Shown in pieces: positions 19,806 through 39,032 of a stretch of DNA of 64,000 nt. Under the pieces are notes generated by a model, which was not told the DNA's origin, did no database searches, and saw only the letters and a list, made by a program, of their open reading frames with translations. Position numbers and translations under genes: made by a program. How positions within the stretch are numbered: position 1 is the first letter of the stretch; the number at the start of each line of letters is the position of its first letter. Origin of the DNA: Escherichia coli (GTDB lineage Bacteria; Pseudomonadota; Gammaproteobacteria; Enterobacterales; Enterobacteriaceae); NCBI RefSeq assembly GCF_030013595.1, contig NZ_CP122768.1; one strand, written 5' to 3'.

Positions 19806-21395
19806 ATGAACAATAACGATCTGGTCGCGAAGCTGTGGAAGCTGTGTGACAATCTGCGCGATGGCGGCGTTTCCTATCAAAACTACGTCAATGAACTCGC
19901 CTCGCTGCTGTTTTTGAAAATGTGTAAAGAGACCGGACAGGAAGCGGAGTACCTGCCGGTAGGCTACCGCTGGGATGACCTGAAATCCCGTATCGGTCAG
20001 GAGCAGTTGCAGTTCTACCGTAATCTGCTGGTACATCTGGGCGCCGACAATCAAAAGCTGGTGCAGGCGGTGTTCCAGAACGTCAACACCACCATTACCC
20101 AGCCGAAACAGTTGACCGAACTGGTCGGCAATATGGATTCACTGGACTGGTACAACGGCGCACACGGTAAGTCGCGCGATGACTTCGGCGATATGTACGA
20201 AGGGCTGTTGCAGAAAAACGCCAACGAAACCAAGTCTGGCGCGGGCCAGTACTTCACCCCGCGTCCGCTGATTAAAACCATTATTCATCTGCTGAAACCG
20301 CAGCCGCGTGAAGTGGTGCAGGACCCGGCAGCCGGTACGGCGGGCTTTTTGATTGAAGCCGACCGCTACGTTAAGTCGCAGACCAATGATCTGGACGACC
20401 TTGATGGCGACACGCAGGATTTCCAGATCCACCGCGCGTTTATCGGCCTCGAACTGGTGCCCGGCACCCGTCGTCTGGCGCTGATGAACTGCCTGCTGCA
20501 CGATATTGAAGGCAACCTCGACCACGGCGGCGCAATCCGTCTGGGCAACACCCTGGGCAGCGACGGTGAAAACCTGCCGAAGGCGCATATTGTCGCCACT
20601 AACCCGCCGTTTGGCAGCGCCGCGGGCACCAACATTACCCGCACCTTTGTTCACCCGACCAGCAACAAACAGCTGTGCTTTATGCAGCATATTATCGAAA
20701 CGCTGCATCCCGGCGGTCGTGCGGCGGTAGTGGTGCCAGATAACGTGCTGTTTGAAGGCGGCAAAGGCACCGACATCCGTCGTGACCTGATGGATAAGTG
20801 TCATCTGCATACCATCCTGCGTCTGCCGACCGGTATTTTTTACGCTCAGGGCGTGAAAACTAACGTGCTGTTCTTTACCAAAGGGACGGTGGCGAACCCG
20901 CATCAGGATAAGAACTGCACCGATGATGTGTGGGTGTACGACCTGCGTACCAATATGCCGAGCTTCGGCAAGCGCACGCCGTTTACCGACGAGCATTTGC
21001 AGCCGTTTGAGCGCGTGTATGGCGAAGATCCCCACGGTTTAAGCCCGCGCACTGAAGGTGAATGGAGTTTTAACGCCGAAGAGACGGAAGTTGCCGACAG
21101 CGAAGAGAACAAAAACACCGATCAGCATCTGGCTACCAGCCGCTGGCGCAAGTTCAGCCGCGAGTGGATCCGCACCGCGAAATCCGATTCGCTGGATATC
21201 TCCTGGCTGAAAGATAAAGACAGTATTGATGCCGACAACCTGCCGGAGCCGGATGTATTAGCGGCAGAAGCGATGGGTGAACTGGTGCAGGCGCTGGGCG
21301 AACTGGATGCGCTGATGCGTGAACTGGGGGCGAGCGATGAGGCCGATTTGCAGCGTCAGTTGCTGGAAGAAGCATTTGGTGGGGTGAAGGAATGA
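19806..21395 (+). CDS. hsdM: type I restriction-modification N6-adenine methyltransferase M subunit
   Basis: 529-aa ORF with the NPPF catalytic motif (VATNPPFGS); 4-nt overlap with hsdS. Confidence 0.95.
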   Translation: MNNNDLVAKLWKLCDNLRDGGVSYQNYVNELASLLFLKMCKETGQEAEYLPVGYRWDDLKSRIGQEQLQFYRNLLVHLGADNQKLVQAVFQNVNTTITQPKQLTELVGNMDSLDWYNGAHGKSRDDFGDMYEGLLQKNANETKSGAGQYFTPRPLIKTIIHLLKPQPREVVQDPAAGTAGFLIEADRYVKSQTNDLDDLDGDTQDFQIHRAFIGLELVPGTRRLALMNCLLHDIEGNLDHGGAIRLGNTLGSDGENLPKAHIVATNPPFGSAAGTNITRTFVHPTSNKQLCFMQHIIETLHPGGRAAVVVPDNVLFEGGKGTDIRRDLMDKCHLHTILRLPTGIFYAQGVKTNVLFFTKGTVANPHQDKNCTDDVWVYDLRTNMPSFGKRTPFTDEHLQPFERVYGEDPHGLSPRTEGEWSFNAEETEVADSEENKNTDQHLATSRWRKFSREWIRTAKSDSLDISWLKDKDSIDADNLPEPDVLAAEAMGELVQALGELDALMRELGASDEADLQRQLLEEAFGGVKE

Positions 21396-22760
21396 GTGCG
21401 GAGAAATTGCCGGAGGGGTGGGTTGAGTGTGAATTATCCGAACTCGGTAACATTGTTACAGGGAAAACTCCCAGTACCAAGGAGCCTTCCAATTTTGGAG
21501 GCAGCATTCCTTTCATTAAACCAGGCGATCTTGATCTCGGTGGCTATATCATGAATACCGCCGATACTCTGACGGAGAAAGGGTTATCTCTTGTCCCCAC
21601 TCTTCCTGCCAATTCAGTCGTTGTGACGTGTATTGGAAATTTAGGAAAAGTTGGAATTACCGCTAAAAAATCAGCATCTAATCAACAAATAAATGCATTG
21701 ATCCCGTCAGAAAAGCTAAATGTAAAATTTGTTTATTACCAAATTTTAACATTAAAACCATGGTTAGAGTCTCAATCAGCAGCTACTACAATTGCGATTG
21801 TGAACAAGAGCAAATTTTCTCAGGCACCATTTAAATTCCCGTCGCTTGCCGAACAAAAAATCATCACTGAAAAACTCGATACGCTGCTGGCGCAGGTAGA
21901 CAGCACCAAAGCACGTCTTGAGCAAATCCCACAAATCCTGAATCGTTTTCGTCAGGCTATTCTAGCTAATGCTGTGGAAGGAAAATTGACCGACGAATGG
22001 CGAGCCGGAAAATGTTATATTACAGAAATCAAAAAATATCTGATATTATTCAGAATGCTCAAGTCGGATTAGTTCGTTCAGCTTCAGATCAAAGCGAAAT
22101 ATGCACTCAAAAAATGAGAACGCCTTACATAAAAATGAATAACATTCACAATGTTCTCGGAACAAATTTAGAAAAACTCGCTTATGTCAACTGTGATAGC
22201 TATGAACTGGAAAAATATAGATTAAAAAATGGAGATTGGCTCTTTAATACACGAAATAGTTATGAGTTAGTTGGTAAATCCTGTGTCTGGAATGGATGTA
22301 GCAATGCTGTATATAATAATAATATATTAAGAGTTAGACTAAAAGAAAACTACAATTCTGTTTTTTTAGATTATTGGTTTCACTCGTTCTATGGAGTGAG
22401 CATGCTTAATAGTATTAAATCCGCAACAACAAATGTTGCTGCGATATATCAGAAAGAACTCTTAAGTAAAAGTGTTCCATTCCCCCCCTTCCCGAACAAG
22501 CCGAGATTGTTCGCCGCGTCGAACAACTCTTCGCCTACGCCGACACCATAGAAAAACAGGTCAACAACGCCTTAGCCCGCGTTAACAACCTGACGCAATC
22601 CATCCTGGCAAAAGCGTTCCGTGGTGAACTCACCGCCCAGTGGCGGGCCGAAAACCCGGATTTAATCAGCGGAGAAAACAGCGCCGCCGCGTTGCTGGAA
22701 AAAATCAAAGCTGAACGCGCAGCCAGCGGGGGTAAAAAAGCCTCGCGTAAAAAATCCTGA
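21392..22760 (+). pseudogene. hsdS: type I specificity subunit HsdS, disrupted by two 1-bp homopolymer frameshifts; target-recognition domains differ from EcoKI
   Basis: three consecutive reading-frame pieces (21392..22072, 21997..22551, and a third frame to the TGA at 22758..22760); conserved central (LAEQKIITEKLDTLLAQVDSTKARLEQIPQIL) and C-terminal ([25 protein letters not shown]...) regions are recognisable. Confidence 0.8.
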
Positions 22761-25916: not shown

Positions 25917-25938
25917 GCGGTAAGTTTTATAGAAAATA

Positions 25939-25965
25939 CCGCTCCCGACACGACGTCGGGAGCGG
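25939..25965. terminator. bidirectional stem-loop between convergent mcrC and the large helicase gene
   Basis: perfect 11-bp inverted repeat ccgctcccgac / gtcgggagcgg. Confidence 0.55.
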
Positions 25966-25972
25966 CACATCA

Positions 25973-28900
25973 TCAGGAGGCGAGCACCTCCACCAGCACA
26001 TCCGTTGCCCAGCTCTCTTCACTGTTGACCACATTCCCTTCCTGACAAGCTTGATCCATTTTGACTAACTGGAAAGAAACGTCATCGCGGAAGTCAAAGT
26101 AATGCCATTGCGATGCAAAGTTGATACGCCAGTAGCCCATCCCCTGATCGAAGCGGATCTTCAATACCTGACCATCCTCAAAAGTCACCGTCAGTTTACG
26201 ATGGTGAGGGATATCGCGCGGCGAGTCGAACACCGCCAGTTCTACCGGCCTGCCCAGCGCAGCTGCAAACCACTGATCAGCGAAATCCTGAAAATCCGCT
26301 ATGCTCATCCAGTCATGAAAAGGCCGGTTACCGGGGCGATCTTTATCTTTAAACAGCGTATCCAGCGTCACTTCAGCGCCATCGGTCAGCTTTGTTTTTA
26401 GCGGTCTCAGAATTGATCCCAACAACGCCAGCGCAACCGGGTTTTGCAGATAGCGATCGGTATAGTGAACGCCGGTAATTCGCGTATTTTTCATCAGTGA
26501 CTGCGCTTCTTCATGGTCGTTAAACAGCACGTCCCAGAAGCGTTGCCCAAACTGCGACAACGGTCCATTCAACTGTTTGTGGATCTGGATGTCTTTGACC
26601 CGCTCGACAGCGTTGGCGGCTTTAGCTGGCAGAATAAACTCGCTCAGTTCTACCGTTTTATAACCGAGGCTACGCACTACCAGTTCGTCATTCAGGTGCC
26701 ACTCCGGCCCCGGAATCGTTGCCTGCTGACTGCGAGAGGCCAGCGTCATCACGCGATCGGCAAAGGTAACCTGGGCAACAATCGGTAATTGCAGATCCTG
26801 TTCAACATGGCACAGTCGCACACCCAGCGCAGTAAATTGCGATAGTTCATGCAACAGGTCCGGATCATCCACTCCCGCAGGAATAACAAGATCGACCTCG
26901 ACGTTGTCTTTTAGCCGATAGCTCTGAATAGCCGCGCGGAACTGACGGGCGTATAAATCCCACTCATTGGGCGCGCCAGTCATCCACAGGGTGAGCTTTT
27001 CAGCGCCTTCGTTAATCGCCCGGCGAATCGTATCGCCAATAGCGCCAGGGCAGTAGCGGGCATCCGGCAGCGAGAATGTCTCTTCATCCGGTAAACCGAT
27101 GTAATACGTGAAGTCATCGCCAAGCCAGGCCAGCGCCGCTTTGCGATCCAGCAAATCATGATCGTGGCGAGTCTGGGAATCAAGCAGGCATTCACTGCAT
27201 GCAGTATCACAATGGCGGCAGCCTAACTGTTTCACCATTCCCTGCAAAATAGCTTCAATGTGTACCGGTGCGCTGGAGGCAAAACCTGCACCACCGCTGA
27301 TCACATCATAAAGCTGTACGGCTAATACCGATTGCCCATCCTCCAGTCTGACCGGACGTACAGAATAGCCGAGTTCTGCGGTGGAGATACCCAGAACGCC
27401 CGCCAGCGCCTGACGCAGAGCAACCGCCAGAGTCATGGCGACAATCCGCCCCTCTTCTGTGTTATCTGGCAGATACTCGCCATTTTGTGGTTTGCGCAGA
27501 ACCATTTCAAAGACATCGGTGCGCGCCAGTGCGCCCAGGGTGACTTTCTTCACGAGTGCCGTCGAACCTGGGCAAATCAGACGATGATTCTGGCTGTCGC
27601 GGTCCGCTTTACCCGGACGCGGTGGATAGTGAGCTTCCATACTTTTCGGCGCATCATTTTCATTCAGCATCGACTCCGCACGGCCACAGCTCAGACACAA
27701 TGCATAACCGTGTCCACCTTCCCCCAGACTTTGCTGGAAAACATGCCCATCAGCCCCAGAAGCCATATAACCCATTAGCGGGTTAGGCAACGGTACGGGC
27801 TCTGCTTTAACAAAGACCCACGCGGGGACAACCGGGACGAATTTCATGGTTTCAATATTGTTCGTTACCGGAGCATGTGCATCGGTAACAAACCCGGCAG
27901 GCTGCAGCACCTGACGGCGATTATCCAGGATGATTTTTTCGCCGCAGGCGCTGTTGGAGCAAAAGAGCATCCCGGAACTGCTCATCCCCTCTTCATAGCC
28001 AATGGTCCCGCATTTATGACAGCGCCAGGCGCAATCCAGACGCTGGGCTTCATTGGTATCAGCATTAATGTTGTGCCAGTGCAGTGAGACACCGGCAGAG
28101 CGGAAGACACGGCCATCAAGAATGATCTCTGCTCCCGGTGCATATTCACGAATGGCAACACCGAGGTTACGGGAAGGTAATCCTTTATAACGGGAGACGT
28201 TATCTTCACGGTCCTTTTTATCACGACTTTTCTGCGATTTTTCGCGGATATAATCTTCCATCGTGAAGTTATCAAACGTCACTACATCTGTCGGGAAACC
28301 GTATCCCGGCAGGAAGGTTCTGGCAGCCAGATCGCGCAGCAGATACTCGCCACAGTGCCGTTTCTTCTCCAGCTCTATGCGCTTACGATAAGGCGTTTGC
28401 GGCTGCGACTCACGCTCCTGGGTCACGAGATCGCGATAAACGGAGAGCCACCGCTGTTGCAGGAAGGTGATCGCGTTGATTGTTTTGTCCCGCAGATGTT
28501 CGGCTCTTGCGCCATGCAATGCCGTACCTTTCACCAGCCGTTCCAGCGCCGTGTCGATATCAAGAACAGAGCGTTCCAGCCAGACTTTGAAGCGTTCGCA
28601 TTTTGACTCCCCGTCATCTTCACCGAAAAACCAGAGGCTATCGAGGCTGGTTTTCTCTTTATCGGTTTCGCCAATAACGTTACATAAAAAGTCGGACAGT
28701 AATAATGCATTGACGTGACGTTGCACCAGTCGGGCGGAGTTCATCGCGACCATGGGTGCCGGGATCATGGTTTCAAACGGCCAGAGTGGGTTGGCAAAAA
28801 CCTGTTGGTCGTGTGGGTTACCCTTACATAGGGTGTAAGAGATCGCGCGCGATTCTTTACTACGCCCGGCTCGCCCGGCGCGCTGTAAATAGTTGGCCGG

Positions 28901-31900
28901 ATGTGGCGGTACGTTGTTCATTACCACCGCAGTAATGCCCCCGATATCAACCCCCATTTCCATGGTGGTGGAACAGTTGAGAACATTTAGTTGCCCATTC
29001 TTGAACATCTTTTCATAGCTTTGCAGACGTTCTGACGACTGCTGGGCAGAGTGCTCGGCAGTGCGATAGTAGAAACCGCCTTCCACGACACGATCGTTGA
29101 TGTCTGTCCAGACGTTTTCCGACCGCAATTGTGCGATCAGCGGATCATTGCTGACCCAGTCGCGTGCTTTTGCCAGACCCTCTGCGTAGTCTTCCTGTGA
29201 ACGATCCAGCTTCCAGATTTCCGGCATGGTGACTTTCTGCGCGACAAAAGTGTCATATTGCGCCTGGGTAAGATGCTCGAACGAAATATGGGTAGGCAGA
29301 TAAGGGGTTAAGCCTTTAAAAGCCGTATCCAGGATTTTATTGGTTACCGGGCAAATCCAGGCATCCGTGATTAAAGAAAAAGTCATATGCTCTTTCGGTA
29401 AATAAAAACGGTTGCCATCGGGTTTCAGTACTGCAAGCGGTCCGGTAAGTTGGGCCCATGCTTCTTTCAGCCATGTATTGATAATATCAATAGTCGCCGT
29501 ATTGACGGTTTTGAATCCAGCCCCCAGCATCAGTAACTTCGCTAAACGATGGGATACGTTGCCATTACGAATTTGAGGCCAGCGTCTGTTCTGATTATCT
29601 TCAGGATCTTTTGATTCCGGGTTACGGACGAATTTTGATGAAAAACGGCTACCAATCCAGTTTTTCAGCTCATCATCCAGCTGTGTGAAGTTGCTTTCGC
29701 GAACATAAAGATCCAACGTAACCTTGAGAAAATCGCGCCAGTCATCCAGCGTTAATCCTTTTTCCTGCCAGTGCAAGGGGCTCTTATGTATTTTCTCCAG
29801 CCCCTGGTAACCAACCTGAACCAGCCCCTGTGTTTCCAGGCTGTTAGTCCGTTTAGGGCGACGCATGAATTCCCGGAACAACAACATTTCCGAAAGCTTT
29901 AGTGGCCCGCCGTTTTTATTAAACACTTCAGGCTGCAAATAGTGGTTATATTTCAGTACCGGGCCACGGATATCGGCTTTATCTTTAAGCTCGTTAACCA
30001 TTTCTGTCCAGGTGCGGGATACCAGGGTAGTTGCTGCTTTTCCACCGGTTGCAGCCTGATAAGCCTGTTCAAGCTGTTCAGCCTGCGCTTGTGACAATTT
30101 CGCCTGGTCTGGCATTCCCCAGCTTCGATATTCTTCTGCCTGCTCACGGGCTTGCTTCGCCCTGGCCGCTAATTTTTCCAGATCGGCATTGGCATTCGGC
30201 GCCGTGGACGTTTGCGTCCGTTGATGCCAGCTCAGAATTTCGACTACGCTTCCGCGTAAGAGACTGCGTTCTGCTTCTTGCTGCATACGCACCGCCATTC
30301 GAGCTGTACCTTGTCGACTGTCCGTAAAGGTAATGAGTCGACGTCCTCGCCCTGGCAACGAATCTGGTCCGACGCCCTCTTTGCCTTCATCACTGGTAAA
30401 GTCCTGACAATACTCAAGAACGGTAGGCACGATGTTAGTAACGTAAAATGGCCCACCTAATAATGCACGCCGGAAGGGTTGTTTCCCACTCATGCCTCGG
30501 TAGCCACAGCCGCTGGCGCTACAAACCTTTTTATCATTAATAATCAGCGGAATGCTGTCATTATTAATAACGCCAATACGGCGCGTCTGACGGTCGAGGC
30601 GTTGTAGGGTATAGCCTGTCTCGCTGGTCTCTCCTGCGGCAATAATCAACGGAGGCAGGAAACCGTTCTCTTTTTCGACTTTTTCCTCTGTAGTGTCATG
30701 TTCAACAGGTACTTCATCCTGCAAGGAGAACTCATCGCCACCTTTATTTTCCCATTGGACAAGTTTGCCCTTTTTGTCCTGCGCCAGAAGATGAGGCTCA
30801 TTACAATCATTACAGAACGCCACTTCGTAGACAGGGCTTCCACAGTCGCAATTTTGTCGCTGGTTCACATACACATAGCCAAAGGGCCAGCCTTTTTCGA
30901 GCGGTGTACCGTGCTTTAATCTGCAATCTTTATCAACACAAGCCCATATTCCTTGGGTATTACGCTGGAAGATATGCGCCCTGACTTTAAGAAATGCGGG
31001 ATCCTTTGCATTAGGTTGAGTCCCTGAACAGACATCGATCCAACGCAGTACTTCCTGCTGGCTGTAATGCTGTTTTGTCAGCGCATTTAACCGCTGCGTC
31101 ATCTCATCCAGTTTCATTGGATTAGGTTGGCTAACCAACATTTCACGTATGTAACGCGCTTCGGGGGAGTGCGTAAGCGCATAAAAGCGCTCAGGACTTA
31201 TCCCTTTAATTTTATTATCATTTTTATCTTTTAGATCCAGATCAGGTATTTGCTCTATTTCGTCTAACGGAACAGAAACGTTTTTGGATGGTTCCAGTTC
31301 AGGAATCACCCGACTTCCGTCCAGAACATCGATGCGCTCCTGCGGGATACCGGATAATTCAGAGAGAAATTTTTTCAGCTGTTTTTCGGCGTCGCTGCCG
31401 GCAATGGTCGCAGAGGTCGCTACAAAGCGCACATCATCTGGCGTCACGCCAAACGCTGTCATCACACGACGCAGCTGGAGTGCCAGTTCAGCGGCCTGCG
31501 ACCCGACATAGGTATGCGCTTCATCCAGTACAATCCAGCGTAGTGATTTTTGTGCTTTGGATTGCTGGATAATCGGGGCGTCGACCTGGCGAACCATCAT
31601 ATATTCCAGCATCGTGCCGTTGGTCACCAGAATCGGGGCAGGCTCCAGACGCATCTTTTCACGGGATAAGACTTCATTTGGTCTATTATCCTGCACTGTT
31701 TTCATTTTTGCGTGGAGCTCTTCTGTATTTCCGTTATACAAGCAGTAGCGGATCCCAGTACCAAAACCACGCGTCCAGGCATCCAGACGCTCGCGCTGTG
31801 AATTAATCAAGGCGTTCAATGGATAGAGAAAAAGGGCTCGGACACCAACCAACGGATTGTTGCCATTTTCATGCAGTTCCCGGTAAAGATCTTCCAGCAC

Positions 31901-32314
31901 CGGAACCATAAAACATTCCGTTTTACCTGAACCCGTACCACTGGTTACCACCACTGAATGTTTCTTTTCCAGCAAAGCTTTCCAACTGGCTAACTGGTGT
32001 GTAAAAGGCTTCCAGTCAGCACCAAATCGGTACCGGCCATTACTCTGATTATCCAGTGAATCAACCACTGCTTTGCTCAACAATGCGTTGCCTTCCGTCA
32101 GACTGCGCATCGTGTGGTTTGACTCCTTCCAGCCAAACATTTGCTGGAATACCGGAGAAGCAAGGAATGAGCCCGGTTTCCCACAATCAGCCCCCATTTG
32201 TTGCGCGAGATGTTCACGCAGCTGCGGGTTGGTTACGCCCATGATACTGAGCGTTGCTTCAGTTGAACGAGACAACGATTGTTCAATAAGTGACGAAAAA
32301 TAGCGTGTAGTCAT
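25973..32314 (-). CDS. 2113-aa DEAD/DEAH-box helicase with Cys-rich zinc-ribbon-like modules (DruE-like defence helicase; inferred)
   Basis: Walker A SGTGSGKT (31919..31945), DEAH (31514..31525), SAT motif, helicase motif V MEMGVDIG and [10 protein letters not shown] (28862..28885), Cys clusters [45 protein letters not shown] before the ATG. Confidence 0.85.
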
Positions 32315-32326
32315 CCTTATTCCTTT

Positions 32327-35300
32327 TTATTTTTTAGCAACATAACGCAACAGGCTGCACTGAAAGATGGTCTTAAACCAGCGGGAATCGAAGTCCCTGA
32401 CTTGCCTCAGGAAAAATACGGCACCGGGTTTACGGTCAAATACAGCTTCAAAAGAAGTATTTCCGCTTGCCACAGCTGCAGCGAAGACGGGTAACCAGGC
32501 CACGGAATAGCGGTGATTTGCGTCAGGATTAATACCAATCACTGGATTTTTTTGTGACATCATCCATTTATACAGACGCTTGCAGCCATATTCAGGCCAG
32601 CGAGCTTCACTGTGCTCACGTAAAAGCTCCTGATACCACCCGTGGACACAAGATTCAGGAATAGACGGAGGGAGATATCCGTTACTTAACCATTTCTCAA
32701 TTTCATCGGCATATGTCGGGAACACGAGCCCCAGCCGTTGAAACATATTAGTAACCAGTAATTTCTGGGTTTCCTCCGGTGCACCTTTTTGGCTCAGGAA
32801 CAATTTGAAACGCTCAGATGCAGCTTTGATCTCAAAGATGGGGAAAAACTCCCATAGAATAGGGAACTCATTCTCAATACGACTCAGGTACTCTGCTGAC
32901 ATTTCAAATTTGAAGAGCGACATCGCCAATGCCTGCGGATGCTGCACTAGTGCACGCCATACTTCAAAGGTTGCCAGCGGTAAATAACCAAATTGATCGT
33001 ACAGGCTACGCATAAATTGCCAGCCGGAATGGGCAGGATCGTTAGCCATCTGTCCGAGAACCAGTGTGATGGTATTAACTTCTGCCTGTGGATTAAAAAG
33101 CTGGGTCGCTTTCTGCAATGAGCGGATGTTGCTTTCTTCTACCGGTAACGAAGATTCGCCACGAATGAAGCAGGGGCGAAAAGCCATCTCCTCACCCGGT
33201 TTAGGAACAACCAACCATGGCCCATTTTTGTTAACGATTGAGCTCAACTCATATTCACCGACAGGCACTCCCTCGCTCATTCTTGATGCTAAGGGGATGG
33301 ATTTCCTCTCGGGTTCACTTAACAGCATGATAACGGGGGAAGGAATCTGCCCAGCACGATGGTTCACTGACTGGCTGAGTAATAGTTCTTTTTCATAATC
33401 ATAGCGCAGGCTGTATTTATAGCGACGAATTTGCCAGGCCATGACCACACCTGCCCCCGTAATACGCATCTCAACAACCTGATCAATACCTGCCTCAAGT
33501 GAAATCAGGTTCTCAATATGTTCGCGCAGACTATAGAGATTCAATTCAACAGGACGATCGCTCTACGCCGTATAACACCATTCATGCCATGCCTGTAATC
33601 CACTAACGGAGCGCAAATACAACTGCAATGTATATTTTGTCGGCTCACCATTTCTGGAGAACAGAAACGCTCTGGAACCCAGCAGATCATGCAGCGTAAT
33701 GTTTTTATCCAGAGGACGTCCGTTTACATCAAGAGCGAGACAGCCTTTAGCGGGAAAAGGTAACTCAATGTCGATGGGGTCAGCCGCCAAATTAGGCAGA
33801 ACTTGTAATGTAATAAATGCCGGAGGTACCCCTTCCGCTTTAAGTTGTATCTCTGTTCGCCCCTCAGTACGCTTACGTGTAGCCTCCAATGTTTTATCTT
33901 TAAGTTTTGCTACACAAGGATGCTGTGTGGTGATTAAGATAGTGCCTTCATTTGCGTGCATTCCACCTTTTATCTCAATACTGAAATCAGCAGGCAAGAT
34001 ACCGATTTTGCGACGCAAGAGCGTTTCATTGTTACTATTACGGATAGAAAGATATTGAGCCCCCAGCATCTCTTGTATATGACATTGCTCAATTGAAATT
34101 CCGCTCAGGTAACGCGTTACATCAATGCTTTGAATATCCGGTAGTGTAGAAATGACTTTTGGTACACCAATAAATGTTTCATCTGGATGACAAACCCAGC
34201 TTGCACGCTTTCCATTTAGAGCAAACCTTCCGATGCTGATTTGTTCTCTTCCGGTGCGAATCCGATAAGTTTCATTTGCTGTAACTGTAACGTCCTGACA
34301 TCCCTTCACAGGTAGTGCTTTTAGTCCTAATACGTTTACTGCGCTCGATTGGCCATCAAAACCAGCAACATTGCTATTATCCCGAGGGAGTACAATCAGA
34401 ACATCGCTGCTTCGCACACTGCAAGAAGCCTGTCCCTGTAACAGCCATTGATCTGCATCAACGATGAAGGTTAACGGCACCTCACCAATGGCAATTTCAC
34501 TGTCATCAAGTTTAATGCTCCCAACAATCATCCCTCCAGCACGAGCCACTAATGACAAACCAGCCGATGGATTTTGCCTGACAAATCTCACTTCGCTTTT
34601 ACGTAATCGAACTGTTGCCTGTCTGTTTTCCAGGGAAGCATAGGCTGGCCCAAGGCCAGAGACTTCCTCACCATCTTCACAAATGGCAAGTTCAAAGCGC
34701 GTAGTTGACGGCTCGCTTGTTACAGGAAAGGAAACTTCGTCCGGAAGAGATACTATCACCCTAAGCTCATCTGGATGCTTTTCTGACCAATAGAATTGGC
34801 AACGCGTACTCTTATTTTTTTGTAGTCGAGGCTTAGCCTCTACAGAGGCTGCGCATAGCAGTCCATTCAAAAAATGCGTTCCTGTTTCATCATCTAACGG
34901 TATTGGAAACTCGCTTCGCCAGGTAGGGTGAACCTTCTCAAGCTGTTGTACTGGTTCTTTGTGATTTATTAGGTTGTGAGTAAGTACTAAGGAATTGAGG
35001 TTATCAGCCATATGACTGATAAGTTCTACAGAGGTATCTTCGCTAAAAACAGTTGGCAGCGCTGATTTTTCTATGACAGCTCTTGCCAGCGAAAGGGCAG
35101 AAAAACCTGACTGCTTTGCTTGCTCATATTGTCCAAGGATCCTGGAGAAAACAGCCAGAAAGCGACTGTCTGATTCTTTGAGTAGCCGGAAAGGTAAACC
35201 ACCTTCACTGAATAATGTTCCGAGAAAATTGCGTCGTTCAGATTCATAAAATCGAATTGGGCGCAGCCAGTAATCTTCCATCCCTTTCGGTACGATAGTA

Positions 35301-35617
35301 CCAAGCTCTGTGGCGGTGAATGAAATCCCTATTTTTTTATATATAGGGTCCCACGTCCATCCGCATTGCCGTTCATAATCCCTGCGGTACCACTCAGAGC
35401 AAAAAAGAACAAAACAGGCAGCAAAGTCCCTATTACATATATTAGATTGTGATTGACCGACCGCACGGAGTAGCTGCGTTAATTGGGTATATTCATCATT
35501 GGTTGCATGATATTCATAAAGAGGACGGCCATCCGGTTGTCTCAACCCTCTAAGATTCACAAAGTTACTTAGCCAGGAAGTACATTTTACCCATGAAATG
35601 TATTCTGATTGACCCAA
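32327..35617 (-). pseudogene. ~1096-aa protein of unknown function (DruH-like by position) interrupted by one in-frame TAG at 33563..33565
   Basis: ORFs 33563..35617 (684 aa) and 32327..33544 (405 aa) are in the same frame, separated only by TAG plus six sense codons; no Shine-Dalgarno precedes the downstream TTG; 12-nt gap with RBS to the helicase gene. Confidence 0.75.
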
Positions 35618-36115
35618 AGCAAGCTCCTTAGAGATAAAAGATACAAAAACAAAACCCTACAATACTTCTAATTTGAAAGAAAACTTTTCAAAATATCGTA
35701 TAATTAATCAGGCGGCAACAACTAATTTTTCAGGTCGGTACTATAAATTAATTTTAGATAAAAATGATATCAACTATCTATTAATCACAACTCATTTATC
35801 ACCTGGTTTTATAATTTCAAATGAAAATAAATCTCAAACAATCAAAAAGTATGCAGTAGCTAACATTTAACTTTCCAGGATATAAAACAATTAGAGAAAC
35901 TGCACAATAGCGAATAATGAGAGTTGTAAAGTCAGTCAAAAAACACAAGTAATCAGTGTGCGTTTTTTGACCGTTATCGACATGAGTTTAAAGAGTTTAG
36001 TGAAGAAGATATTCCTGTACACTCCATACCTATTGATGAATTGTCTCGGGAAAATTTTTATAACTTAATTTAAAAACATAAAAACGTTTTATTATATATA
36101 AATCTATAACCCCCA

Positions 36116-36280
36116 TCACTCCACATCCTCCCTGCGTAACCCGATATCCTTCAACCGCTCATCACTCATCTGCTGTAACACCCGCCGGGCCTGCATTTGC
36201 CGCCGCCAACGCCTCACTGCCTGCCAGAGTTGCACAAGTCCAATAAACGGTGCTTTAGCTTTGTTTTCGTGAAATTCCAT
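36116..36280 (-). CDS. yjiS: DUF1127 small protein
   Basis: 54-aa ORF below the track cutoff (MEFHENKAKAPFIGLVQLWQAVRRWRRQMQARRVLQQMSDERLKDIGLRREDVE), GAGGAGG Shine-Dalgarno, divergent from yjiR. Confidence 0.7.
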   Translation of the reverse strand: MEFHENKAKAPFIGLVQLWQAVRRWRRQMQARRVLQQMSDERLKDIGLRREDVE

Positions 36281-36456
36281 CTGCTGCCTCCTCATCTTTC
36301 AGAGGCTTCATCATCCGCCTTCTGGCAGTTCACAATACAGATGCAAATATTAGTTTTATTTAACATACAGACAGGTTAAAACAGCATCTGCATCCGGTTT
36401 TTTAGCCTCATCTGTACCGGTTTTTCTCTCTGTATGGTCCAAATAAGGAATACAGC

Positions 36457-38111: not shown

Positions 38112-39032
38112 TTAGTACTCGAGCCATGAATCGTGCTCACGGTCAGGCAGGGGCTGCACTAATGCCTGTATTTGCTCTGCCGAAAGTCCGGTAATCTTTT
38201 GTATCCATTCAGGATCTACCCCATTCTGCAAAAACAATCGAAGAATGCGCTGTTCCCCTTTTATACATCCATCATTATGAATTCGCTCTGCAATTGTCAT
38301 TATTCGCTCCCTGTGGTGTGGCATTCGCCTGGTAAGTTCGCTGATAAACTTCTTAAAACGCGCTTCATCGCCAGTCAGTAAAATGTAATTTAACAGCGCG
38401 GTTATCTGGCTGTCATTAGCGCACCCTGTAACCAATAATACTGCCAGTTGATCAATAAGCCCCATTAGATCGCGCTGGCGAATATGCTTTTGGATCAACT
38501 CCAACAGGGCGACTCTGCGGTGCTGCACAATCTCGTCGTCTGGCACGACAGTGACATCCACCAGCGGGAACGCTGCAGTATAAAGCTTCCGTGCAGTAGT
38601 CGGGTCGGCAAATTCGTCCAGCCAGCACAAAGACCAGGGATAAGGACTACGGCTACCGTGATAAAACAGCATCGGGATGACCAGCGGTAGCGGCCGGCGT
38701 TTATCATGCTCGATATGGCGCTGCATCACCGCCATGGAATATCGCATCAGGCGAAAGGCCATATGGATATCCTCGCGGCTCTGATGTTCAATCACTACGT
38801 AAATATAACCATCACCTTCACGGGTCTTTACCGACCACAGAATATCGGAGTGTAGCGCCCGCAATTTTTCATCGACGAAGCTGGCGGATTCCAGTTTTAA
38901 GCTGTCGAGATCGCACAGTTCACGTAAATCTTTGGGTAAGTGGATCTCCATAAAATCCCGCGCGGTGTCAGGGTGCGTGAGAAAGGACTTAAATAATGCG
39001 TCATGCGGCGTGCTGGTCGTGAAGTTTGTCAT
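38112..39032 (-). CDS. rpnD: Rpn-family recombination-promoting nuclease (PD-(D/E)xK, transposase_31-like), apparently intact
   Basis: 306-aa uninterrupted ORF ([17 protein letters not shown]...); the K-12 counterpart yjiP/yjiQ is split, from memory. Confidence 0.7.

Follow-up and report, generated by a model that had tools for sequence, protein, structure and literature searches.

The split-core DruE helicase of a druH–druE locus in the Escherichia coli immigration control region

Introduction

A split architecture was predicted in 2025 for DruE (PMC12458937), a helicase of the Druantia III-A systems, and the architecture of homologous DruE proteins has been solved by cryo-electron microscopy (cryo-EM) in several 2026 preprints. 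Here, we describe the DruE helicase encoded by the gene druE in a stretch of 64,000 nucleotides from Escherichia coli (contig NZ_CP122768.1 of NCBI RefSeq assembly GCF_030013595.1), hereafter the window, and compare it with these homologues.

According to Hu et al. (10.64898/2026.05.12.722862), the MrfA-like core of DruE consists of RecA1, RecA2, OB, a connector, a zinc module and an atypical winged helix, and the DruE-specific domains, namely a large two-zinc module, two PLD-like domains and a Cap from which a four-helix dimerisation sub-domain protrudes, account for about 60% of its mass. The same study presents a DNA complex in which the duplex is gripped and over-twisted by the Cap together with the large zinc module, its strands are parted by a wedge-like loop of the Cap (R886-F887-P888) and the 3′ tracking strand threads the toroidal core; without the dimerisation sub-domain, defence is lost. 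Eleven domains (RecA1, RecA2, WH, dZBD, DBD, DD, eWH, OBZ, MZB, PLD1 and PLD2) are distinguished in a second study (10.64898/2026.05.13.724758), with five zinc motifs in all: dZBD and OBZ have two each and MZB has one. From the cryo-EM work on these homologues, the double-zinc and Cap/DBD domains bind the duplex and wedge it open, and the helical sub-domain dimerises; 3′-to-5′ helicase activity was demonstrated biochemically (10.64898/2026.05.12.722862; 10.64898/2026.05.13.724758). The mechanism is also treated in 10.64898/2026.05.13.724313, PMC13192584 and PMC12458937.

An earlier reading of the window, made from its letters only, had noticed a helicase core split by an insertion of some 800 residues. 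We confirm this observation and support its interpretation; the architecture itself is already known.

Identity of the druE product

25973..32314, minus strand: druE, stop codon included; 2113-residue DruE helicase, Druantia type III-A (open reading frame and PADLOC)

The DruE3 profile PDLC00037 of PADLOC covers the druE product from end to end (2693.5 bits, residues 1–2109 against positions 1–2053 of 2055), a full-length match as would be expected for a member of the family, and PDLC00035 and PDLC00036 are also strong matches. We are highly confident that this open reading frame is druE, encoding the signature DEAH helicase of superfamily 2 (SF2; YprA/MrfA-like) of a druH–druE Druantia III-A system, with one motor and a split RecA2. 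The range in which the sequence-only reading had seen its helicase, 27180–32314, does lie within druE, but it spans residues 1–1711 only and leaves outside the C-terminal part of about 400 residues, encoded at 25976–27179. The DNA of druE is 100% identical to the E. coli HCP5S3_I2 gene for WP_064225811.1, which RefSeq labels merely 'DEAD/DEAH box helicase'; this annotation could be improved.

A single motor with RecA2 probably in three pieces

Motifs I, II and III are located near the N-terminus (SGTGSGKT at residues 125–132, DEAH at 264–267 and SAT at 301–303), and motifs V and VI far downstream (MEMGVDIG at 1118–1125 and QRAGRAGR at 1144–1151), all as first read from the sequence. Pfam places DEAD at residues 106–310 (E 1.9e-22) and Helicase_C at 1084–1152, the latter only with the second half of the model (positions 41–109), and has no match between residues 310 and 1084. 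Taken at face value, this could suggest missing or degenerate lobes, and hence that motifs I–III come from one helicase core and motifs V–VI from another, both of them either complete or degenerate, which is the outcome that the first reading had named as its own refutation. Walker A, DExH and motif VI, however, each occur exactly once in the entire DruE, and we reject the two-core scenario, already contradicted, as having practically no chance of being right.

The continuity of the motor can be followed in a spliced mini-core of 419 residues (residues 95–340, 645–692 and 1076–1200), which aligns with the Lhr core in one continuous phmmer alignment (query 9–371 against chain 48–419), motif IV included: DruE residues 658–673 pair with the Lhr motif IV, ssIvFanSRrlaERL. 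The corresponding pieces in the solved E. coli DruE (PDB entry 9tu7; residue mapping throughout is by HMMER alignments to this entry) are 97–340, 638–673 and 1072–1191. A Pfam search with the mini-core was uninformative: the Helicase_C match was not lengthened to the full model (still 39–109). Motifs I–VI make up the SF2 DExH core of the YprA/MrfA family, with one ATP site.

We also computed an AlphaFold2 (AF2) model of residues 1–1200 from an alignment of 39 sequences, including 13 close-to-medium homologues and 25 distant relatives from viral contigs. Its mean predicted local distance difference test (pLDDT) is 86.2 and its predicted template modelling score (pTM) is 0.84, with disorder only at residues 531–551. 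Foldseek with this model returned RecA1-sized local matches only, the sequential search being unable to bridge the insert. The domain map of this half of the protein is as follows (all minus strand).

32018..32314, minus strand: N-terminal region, residues 1–99; helical in AF2, equivalent to the NTR of MrfA/DruE (10.64898/2026.05.12.722862; PMC12458937); boundary approximate
31334..32017, minus strand: RecA1, residues 100–327; motif I at 126–132, motif II (DEAH) at 264–267, motif III (SAT) at 301–303; Pfam DEAD
31295..31333, minus strand: probable first RecA2 strand, residues 328–340; AF2 strand at 328–331, aligned with the start of Lhr RecA2; boundary approximate
30458..31294, minus strand: insertion module A, residues 341–619; winged-helix (WH)/BrxA-like helical part (about 341–440) and double zinc-binding β-barrel (about 441–619; two Cys4 sites)
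30245..30457, minus strand: RecA2 middle piece, residues 620–690; helix at 621–633, motif IV strand–helix at 658–673
29078..30244, minus strand: insertion module B, residues 691–1079; helical dimerisation bundle (about 691–775) and Cap/duplex-binding domain (about 776–1079)
28730..29077, minus strand: RecA2 C-terminal piece, residues 1080–1195; motif V at 1118–1125, motif VI at 1144–1151; 86% identity; Pfam Helicase_C

RecA2 is thus most likely split in three, at about residues 328–340, 620–690 (motif IV) and 1080–1195 (motifs V and VI), because the motif IV block aligns to Lhr and the strand at 328–331 aligns with the start of the second lobe of Lhr. In the AF2 model motif IV comprises a strand (660–663) followed by a long helix. 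The insertion of about 800 residues is therefore real, but it consists of two modules, both embedded in RecA2 and parted by the motif IV-like strand at 658–673, which the sequence-only reading had overlooked and which cuts its single 'insertion' in two.

Module A shows helices at 374–430 and then strands at 444–616 in the AF2 model, and has no Pfam match. It carries eight cysteines (C459, C464, C489, C491, C501, C504, C598 and C603), among them the CDCG (489–492) and CNDC (501–504) motifs of the first reading, which had given their spacer as twelve residues where there are eight, and had missed the flanking pairs C459/C464 and C598/C603. Its counterpart in the solved DruE, dZBD or ZBM_L, binds zinc at two sites and touches the duplex (10.64898/2026.05.13.724758; 10.64898/2026.05.12.722862). 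Module B is modelled as helices (667–702, 712–732 and 735–755) followed by a mixed α/β fold. Its wedge loop R890-F891-S892 aligns with R886-F887-P888 of the solved E. coli protein, and R809 of the latter corresponds to R818 here. This arrangement agrees with two published descriptions: Bell et al. place a BrxA-like domain after RecA1 and a zinc-binding β-barrel and a MarR-like domain within RecA2 (PMC12458937), and Loeff et al. describe 'INS' and 'Stalk' domains embedded in RecA2 (10.64898/2026.05.13.724313). As judged from AF2 and the collinearity with 9tu7, the secondary structure and the order of the putative BrxA-like domain, the zinc barrel and the further RecA2-inserted domain are compatible with the account of Bell et al. 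The earlier suggestion that nucleic-acid-sensing domains are inserted into the motor is correct in substance, judging by the cryo-EM of homologues; the candidate effectors, the PLD-like domains, are C-terminal and not inserted.

The motor belongs with the DEAD/DEAH, MrfA and Lhr-type SF2 helicases and not with SNF2, from both Pfam and the fold comparison, and an ATPase lobe of the SNF2_N type was not found in DruE. The PADLOC models PDLC00013–00051 describe DruE as 'SNF2 family N-terminal domain'.

Conservation across the family

Conservation was measured on 36 full-length homologues with 51–88% identity. Within RecA1 the mean identity is 80%, and residues 651–690, around motif IV, form the most conserved block (89%). 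Invariant cysteines number 26 out of 34, including every clustered cysteine and all eight of module A; F891 of the wedge loop is invariant too. Residues 1–1200 have matches in 2870 cluster representatives at E<=1e-30, and most of the 150 listed representatives (50% identity clusters) are collinear with them in one stretch, a minority in two. The distance from Walker A to motif VI is 919–1138 residues in the 25 distant viral-contig relatives, which are only 22–36% identical to this DruE and show that the split is family-wide; PADLOC assigns examples of them to DruE1, DruE2/4 and DruE3. Because of the cysteine invariance and the family-wide collinearity, neither the split architecture nor the cysteine clusters can be put down to chance.

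These data also bear on whether the intervening segment could be a mobile or selfish insertion (an intein, an inserted gene or an assembly chimera) without any role in the helicase. Its size of about 800 residues and its weak conservation in parts (33% identity at 691–775 and 43% at 341–440) might be read in this way. Yet thousands of homologues, across many phyla and all Druantia types, carry the segment collinearly; it holds invariant cysteine pairs, wedge residues and DNA-contact residues; Pfam matches neither a Hint/intein nor a transposase domain in DruE; the same DNA occurs, 100% identical, in an independent complete genome; and the segment is modelled confidently in one compact assembly (pTM 0.84). 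We give this explanation a negligible probability and retain that of a single helicase core with inserted domains.

Distant DruE-like helicases of 1729–2129 residues are encoded on 28 IMG/VR contigs; PADLOC places them in DruE1, DruE2/4 or DruE3 and leaves some without a class. A large open reading frame lies just upstream of the helicase on many of these contigs, which fits reports of travel on mobile elements.

Zinc domains and PLD-like folds of the C-terminal half

The remainder of the protein was modelled separately with AF2 (residues 1190–2113; pLDDT 85.5, pTM 0.71) and comprises four regions.

28310..28729, minus strand: extended winged-helix/helix-turn-helix domain, residues 1196–1335; helical in the AF2 C-terminal model, followed by the strand-separating loop F1340-P1341
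27440..28309, minus strand: OB fold with two zinc motifs, residues 1336–1625; C1432/C1435/C1452/C1457 and C1540/C1543/C1581
27125..27439, minus strand: MZB/DUF1998 four-cysteine zinc domain, residues 1626–1730; C1699, C1702, C1706 and C1709
25976..27124, minus strand: two PLD-like domains, residues 1731–2113; Y1951-x-D1953-R1954-Y1955 and H2037-x-R2039 conserved

The strand-separating loop F1340-P1341, equivalent to F1327-P1328 in 9tu7, is invariant. The downstream cysteine clusters of the first reading are all present: CHKCG (1432–1436), CSNSACG (1452–1458), CLSCG (1540–1544) and the four-cysteine stretch at 1699–1709. This last stretch belongs to MZB (PF09369 at residues 1630–1710, E 6.2e-9), whose four conserved cysteines are characteristic of the YprA/MrfA family; C1699/C1702/C1706/C1709 are invariant and align with C1681/C1683/C1687/C1690 of the E. 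coli homologue, in which mutation of three MZB cysteines abolishes defence (10.64898/2026.05.13.724758). The clamp histidine H1698 of 9tu7 corresponds to the conserved H1717. F891, F1340-P1341, the MZB cysteines and H1717 are all counterparts of residues whose function has been probed in the E. coli homologue. The five cysteine clusters of this DruE equal the published count of five zinc motifs.

The C-terminal region of about 400 residues, in which the sequence-only reading had recognised no motif, now resolves into two PLD-like folds, the feature that distinguishes Druantia III-A from III-B. The canonical nuclease motif HxK(x)4D occurs nowhere in the whole protein, in spite of the PLD-like fold; there is only H2037-H-R2039. 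Invariant residues of this region in the 36 homologues are W1785-D1786, Y1951, D1953-R1954-Y1955, H2037, R2039 and D2056-Q-G. The nuclease-pocket residues of the Pseudomonas aeruginosa protein (D1740, H1830, D1917-R-Y, H1999 and R2001) recall W1785-D1786, D1953-R-Y and H2037/R2039 here, as a resemblance of motifs only.

Proposed mechanism and the state of the system

The identity of this protein, its single split core, its conservation and its fold assignments are direct observations. Its DNA polarity, the roles of its inserts and its dimerisation would, by homology, most likely be those of its homologues. DruE would then most likely load on 3′ single-stranded DNA exposed at forks or overhangs. 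The tracking strand would be threaded through a tunnel formed by RecA1/2, eWH, OB and MZB and translocated 3′-to-5′ at the expense of ATP, while the inserted double-zinc and Cap domains would grip the duplex as it enters and over-twist it, leaving the wedge phenylalanine to split it. DruH would be required alongside, as a sensor and/or a 3′–5′ exonuclease.

Several points weigh against this reading. All of the mechanistic detail is transferred from homologues, and the match to the solved E. coli DruE is only moderate; the P. aeruginosa protein is also at some distance (59% identical). The assignment of cysteines to zinc sites and the exact break points of RecA2, taken from models, are approximate. 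Published studies differ on the overhang polarity that activates the system. They also differ on the C-terminal domains: two E. coli studies found the PLD domains to be dispensable and saw no nuclease, whereas in P. aeruginosa DruE was described as an ATP-dependent nuclease without which defence fails, and DruE nuclease activity is reported in PMC13192584. It is conceivable, if somewhat doubtful, that this DruE is a pure helicase or translocase, which would clear phage by unwinding or displacement with its PLD-like domains as non-catalytic scaffolds; we lean slightly towards DruE as a helicase-nuclease.

The last of these points concerns the partner gene.

32327..35617, minus strand: druH (yjiT), with an in-frame amber codon at 33563–33565, codon 685 of 1096 (PADLOC DruH3 PDLC00049; NCBIfam YjiT_fam)

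This gene lies 12 nucleotides upstream of druE on the same strand and matches DruH3 and NF038336, so that the two-gene operon is recognisable notwithstanding the amber codon. It reads as two open reading frames of 684 and 405 residues (33563–35617 and 32327–33544), which match positions 1–684 and 691–1099 of PDLC00049. Codon 685 is TAG in the window and TTG (Leu) in HCP5S3_I2, the closest genome; the druH regions of the two differ at only three positions. The break lies where the N-terminal scaffold (residues 1–676 of DruH; PMC13192584) gives way to the C-terminal region, and would remove the latter. As phage defence needs both DruE and DruH in the E. coli, P. aeruginosa and Mycobacterium smegmatis homologues, the amber codon suggests that the system is probably inactive as a defence in this strain, unless the amber base is a sequencing error.

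It is for us an evenly balanced question whether the locus has gone further and is now a decaying pseudogene cluster without current function, with druE intact only because the nonsense mutation in druH is recent. The amber at codon 685 of 1096 in a gene required for defence, the partial deletion of the same locus in the K-12 and BL21 lineages and the reading of the nearby hsdS as two open reading frames all speak for decay. On the other hand, druE has its full length and does not differ from the copy in a strain whose druH is intact, and none of the 176 complete E. coli genomes with this druH segment shares the amber allele; being private, the allele might just as well reflect an error in sequencing or a mutation of very recent date. 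In any case, decay would concern activity in one strain and not the identity of the protein. If genuine, this natural nonsense allele of druH could be used directly as a control for loss of function.

Locus and gene neighbourhood

The druH–druE locus lies in the immigration control region of E. coli, beside mcrBC and hsdRMS. By NCBIfam, the convergent genes downstream of druE are McrB and McrC, with HsdR, HsdM, a split HsdS and SymE farther along. Of 5426 complete E. coli genomes, 652 contain sequence of this druE, and 237 have nearly the whole of it. The K-12 strains MG1655, BW2952 and DH5alpha retain 46% of druE, in two pieces beside yjiT, and BL21(DE3) retains 53%. To judge from these alignments, the K-12 and BL21 laboratory strains carry deleted remnants of the same Druantia III locus, and the window documents the intact chromosomal ancestor of their druE/yjiT remnants.

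We may wonder whether DruHE in this region is functionally coupled to mcrBC/hsdRMS, with modules A and B tuned to the products of restriction rather than to replication forks. This idea, which arises because druE and mcrBC are arranged tail to tail with hsdRMS alongside, and because Druantia III has been reported to favour restriction-sensitive phages, is speculative and in our opinion improbable. Were it true, DruH and DruE would naturally load on the DNA ends or single-stranded overhangs left by McrBC or EcoKI-type enzymes.

25936..25968, minus strand: terminator-like hairpin with a 15-bp stem, just past the druE stop codon (consensus scan only)

The hairpin, with its 15-bp stem, sits in the 56-bp gap between the convergent ends of mcrC (25916) and druE (25973) and may terminate both transcripts.

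The following were also noted in the window.

21392–22551, plus strand: hsdS of the nearby type I restriction–modification system, two overlapping open reading frames in different frames (226 and 184 residues), which match profile positions 1–215 and 221–374 of 461
35618–36456, between yjiS and yjiR: 840 nucleotides here against 2176 in HCP5S3_I2, which has an IS3-family element that is absent from the window; the two strains are thus related but not the same
38112–39032, minus strand: Rpn-family recombination-promoting nuclease between yjiR and mdtM, RpnA-like and under the equivalog cut-off
44669–46639, plus strand: pentapeptide-repeat protein of 656 residues, unrelated to druE
49194–54434, plus strand: inverse autotransporter adhesin of 1746 residues with an IatC/intimin-like N-terminus, unrelated to druE

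Two coding sequences labelled 'subunit S' are also found at hsdS in the three closest genomes, with a 2-nucleotide indel relative to the window; hsdS could be a frameshifted or a half-size specificity gene.

Comparison with known systems

The finding of a split helicase in the window is correct but not new, as it belongs to a described and structurally solved family. The closest members are the Druantia III-A DruE proteins of E. coli EDL933/ATCC 8739 and P. aeruginosa, which share with this one the order NTR, RecA1, WH, double zinc and RecA2 pieces, then dimerisation bundle, Cap/DBD, eWH, OB-Zn, MZB, PLD1 and PLD2, together with the same five cysteine clusters, the wedge and clamp residues and a DruH partner. 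The solved E. coli DruE (PDB entries 9tu7–9tuc, 2108 residues) is collinear with residues 5–2081 here (1025 bits over 2077 aligned residues). It is, however, of a different clade, the best PADLOC model of the present protein being PDLC00037 and not PDLC00036, so that the window provides a DruE from a clade distinct from that of the solved E. coli protein. The surroundings differ as well: the O-island 172 DruE stands beside Zorya II and ARMADA II, whereas this one stands beside mcrBC in the chromosomal immigration control region. The amber codon in druH also sets the window apart from known Druantia III-A systems.

More distant is MrfA/YprA, the DUF1998 helicase of Bacillus subtilis (PDB entries 6ZNP and 6ZNS), which has about 750 residues and a contiguous RecA2; about 60% of DruE, namely its WH, double-zinc, Cap, dimerisation and PLD-like domains, has no counterpart there. 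MrfA serves in mitomycin C repair, whereas DruE acts in phage defence. A further comparison can be made with DISARM DrmA/DrmB (PDB entry 7S9W) and DpdJ. DISARM has its helicase and its DUF1998 module on separate proteins, and both the accessory insertions and the partner genes (a methyltransferase and the PLD protein DrmC) differ from those of DruE. Finally, Hachiman HamB and Lhr also carry large insertions in their RecA lobes, but these inserts are not homologous to those of DruE, their partners differ and HamB has no MZB.

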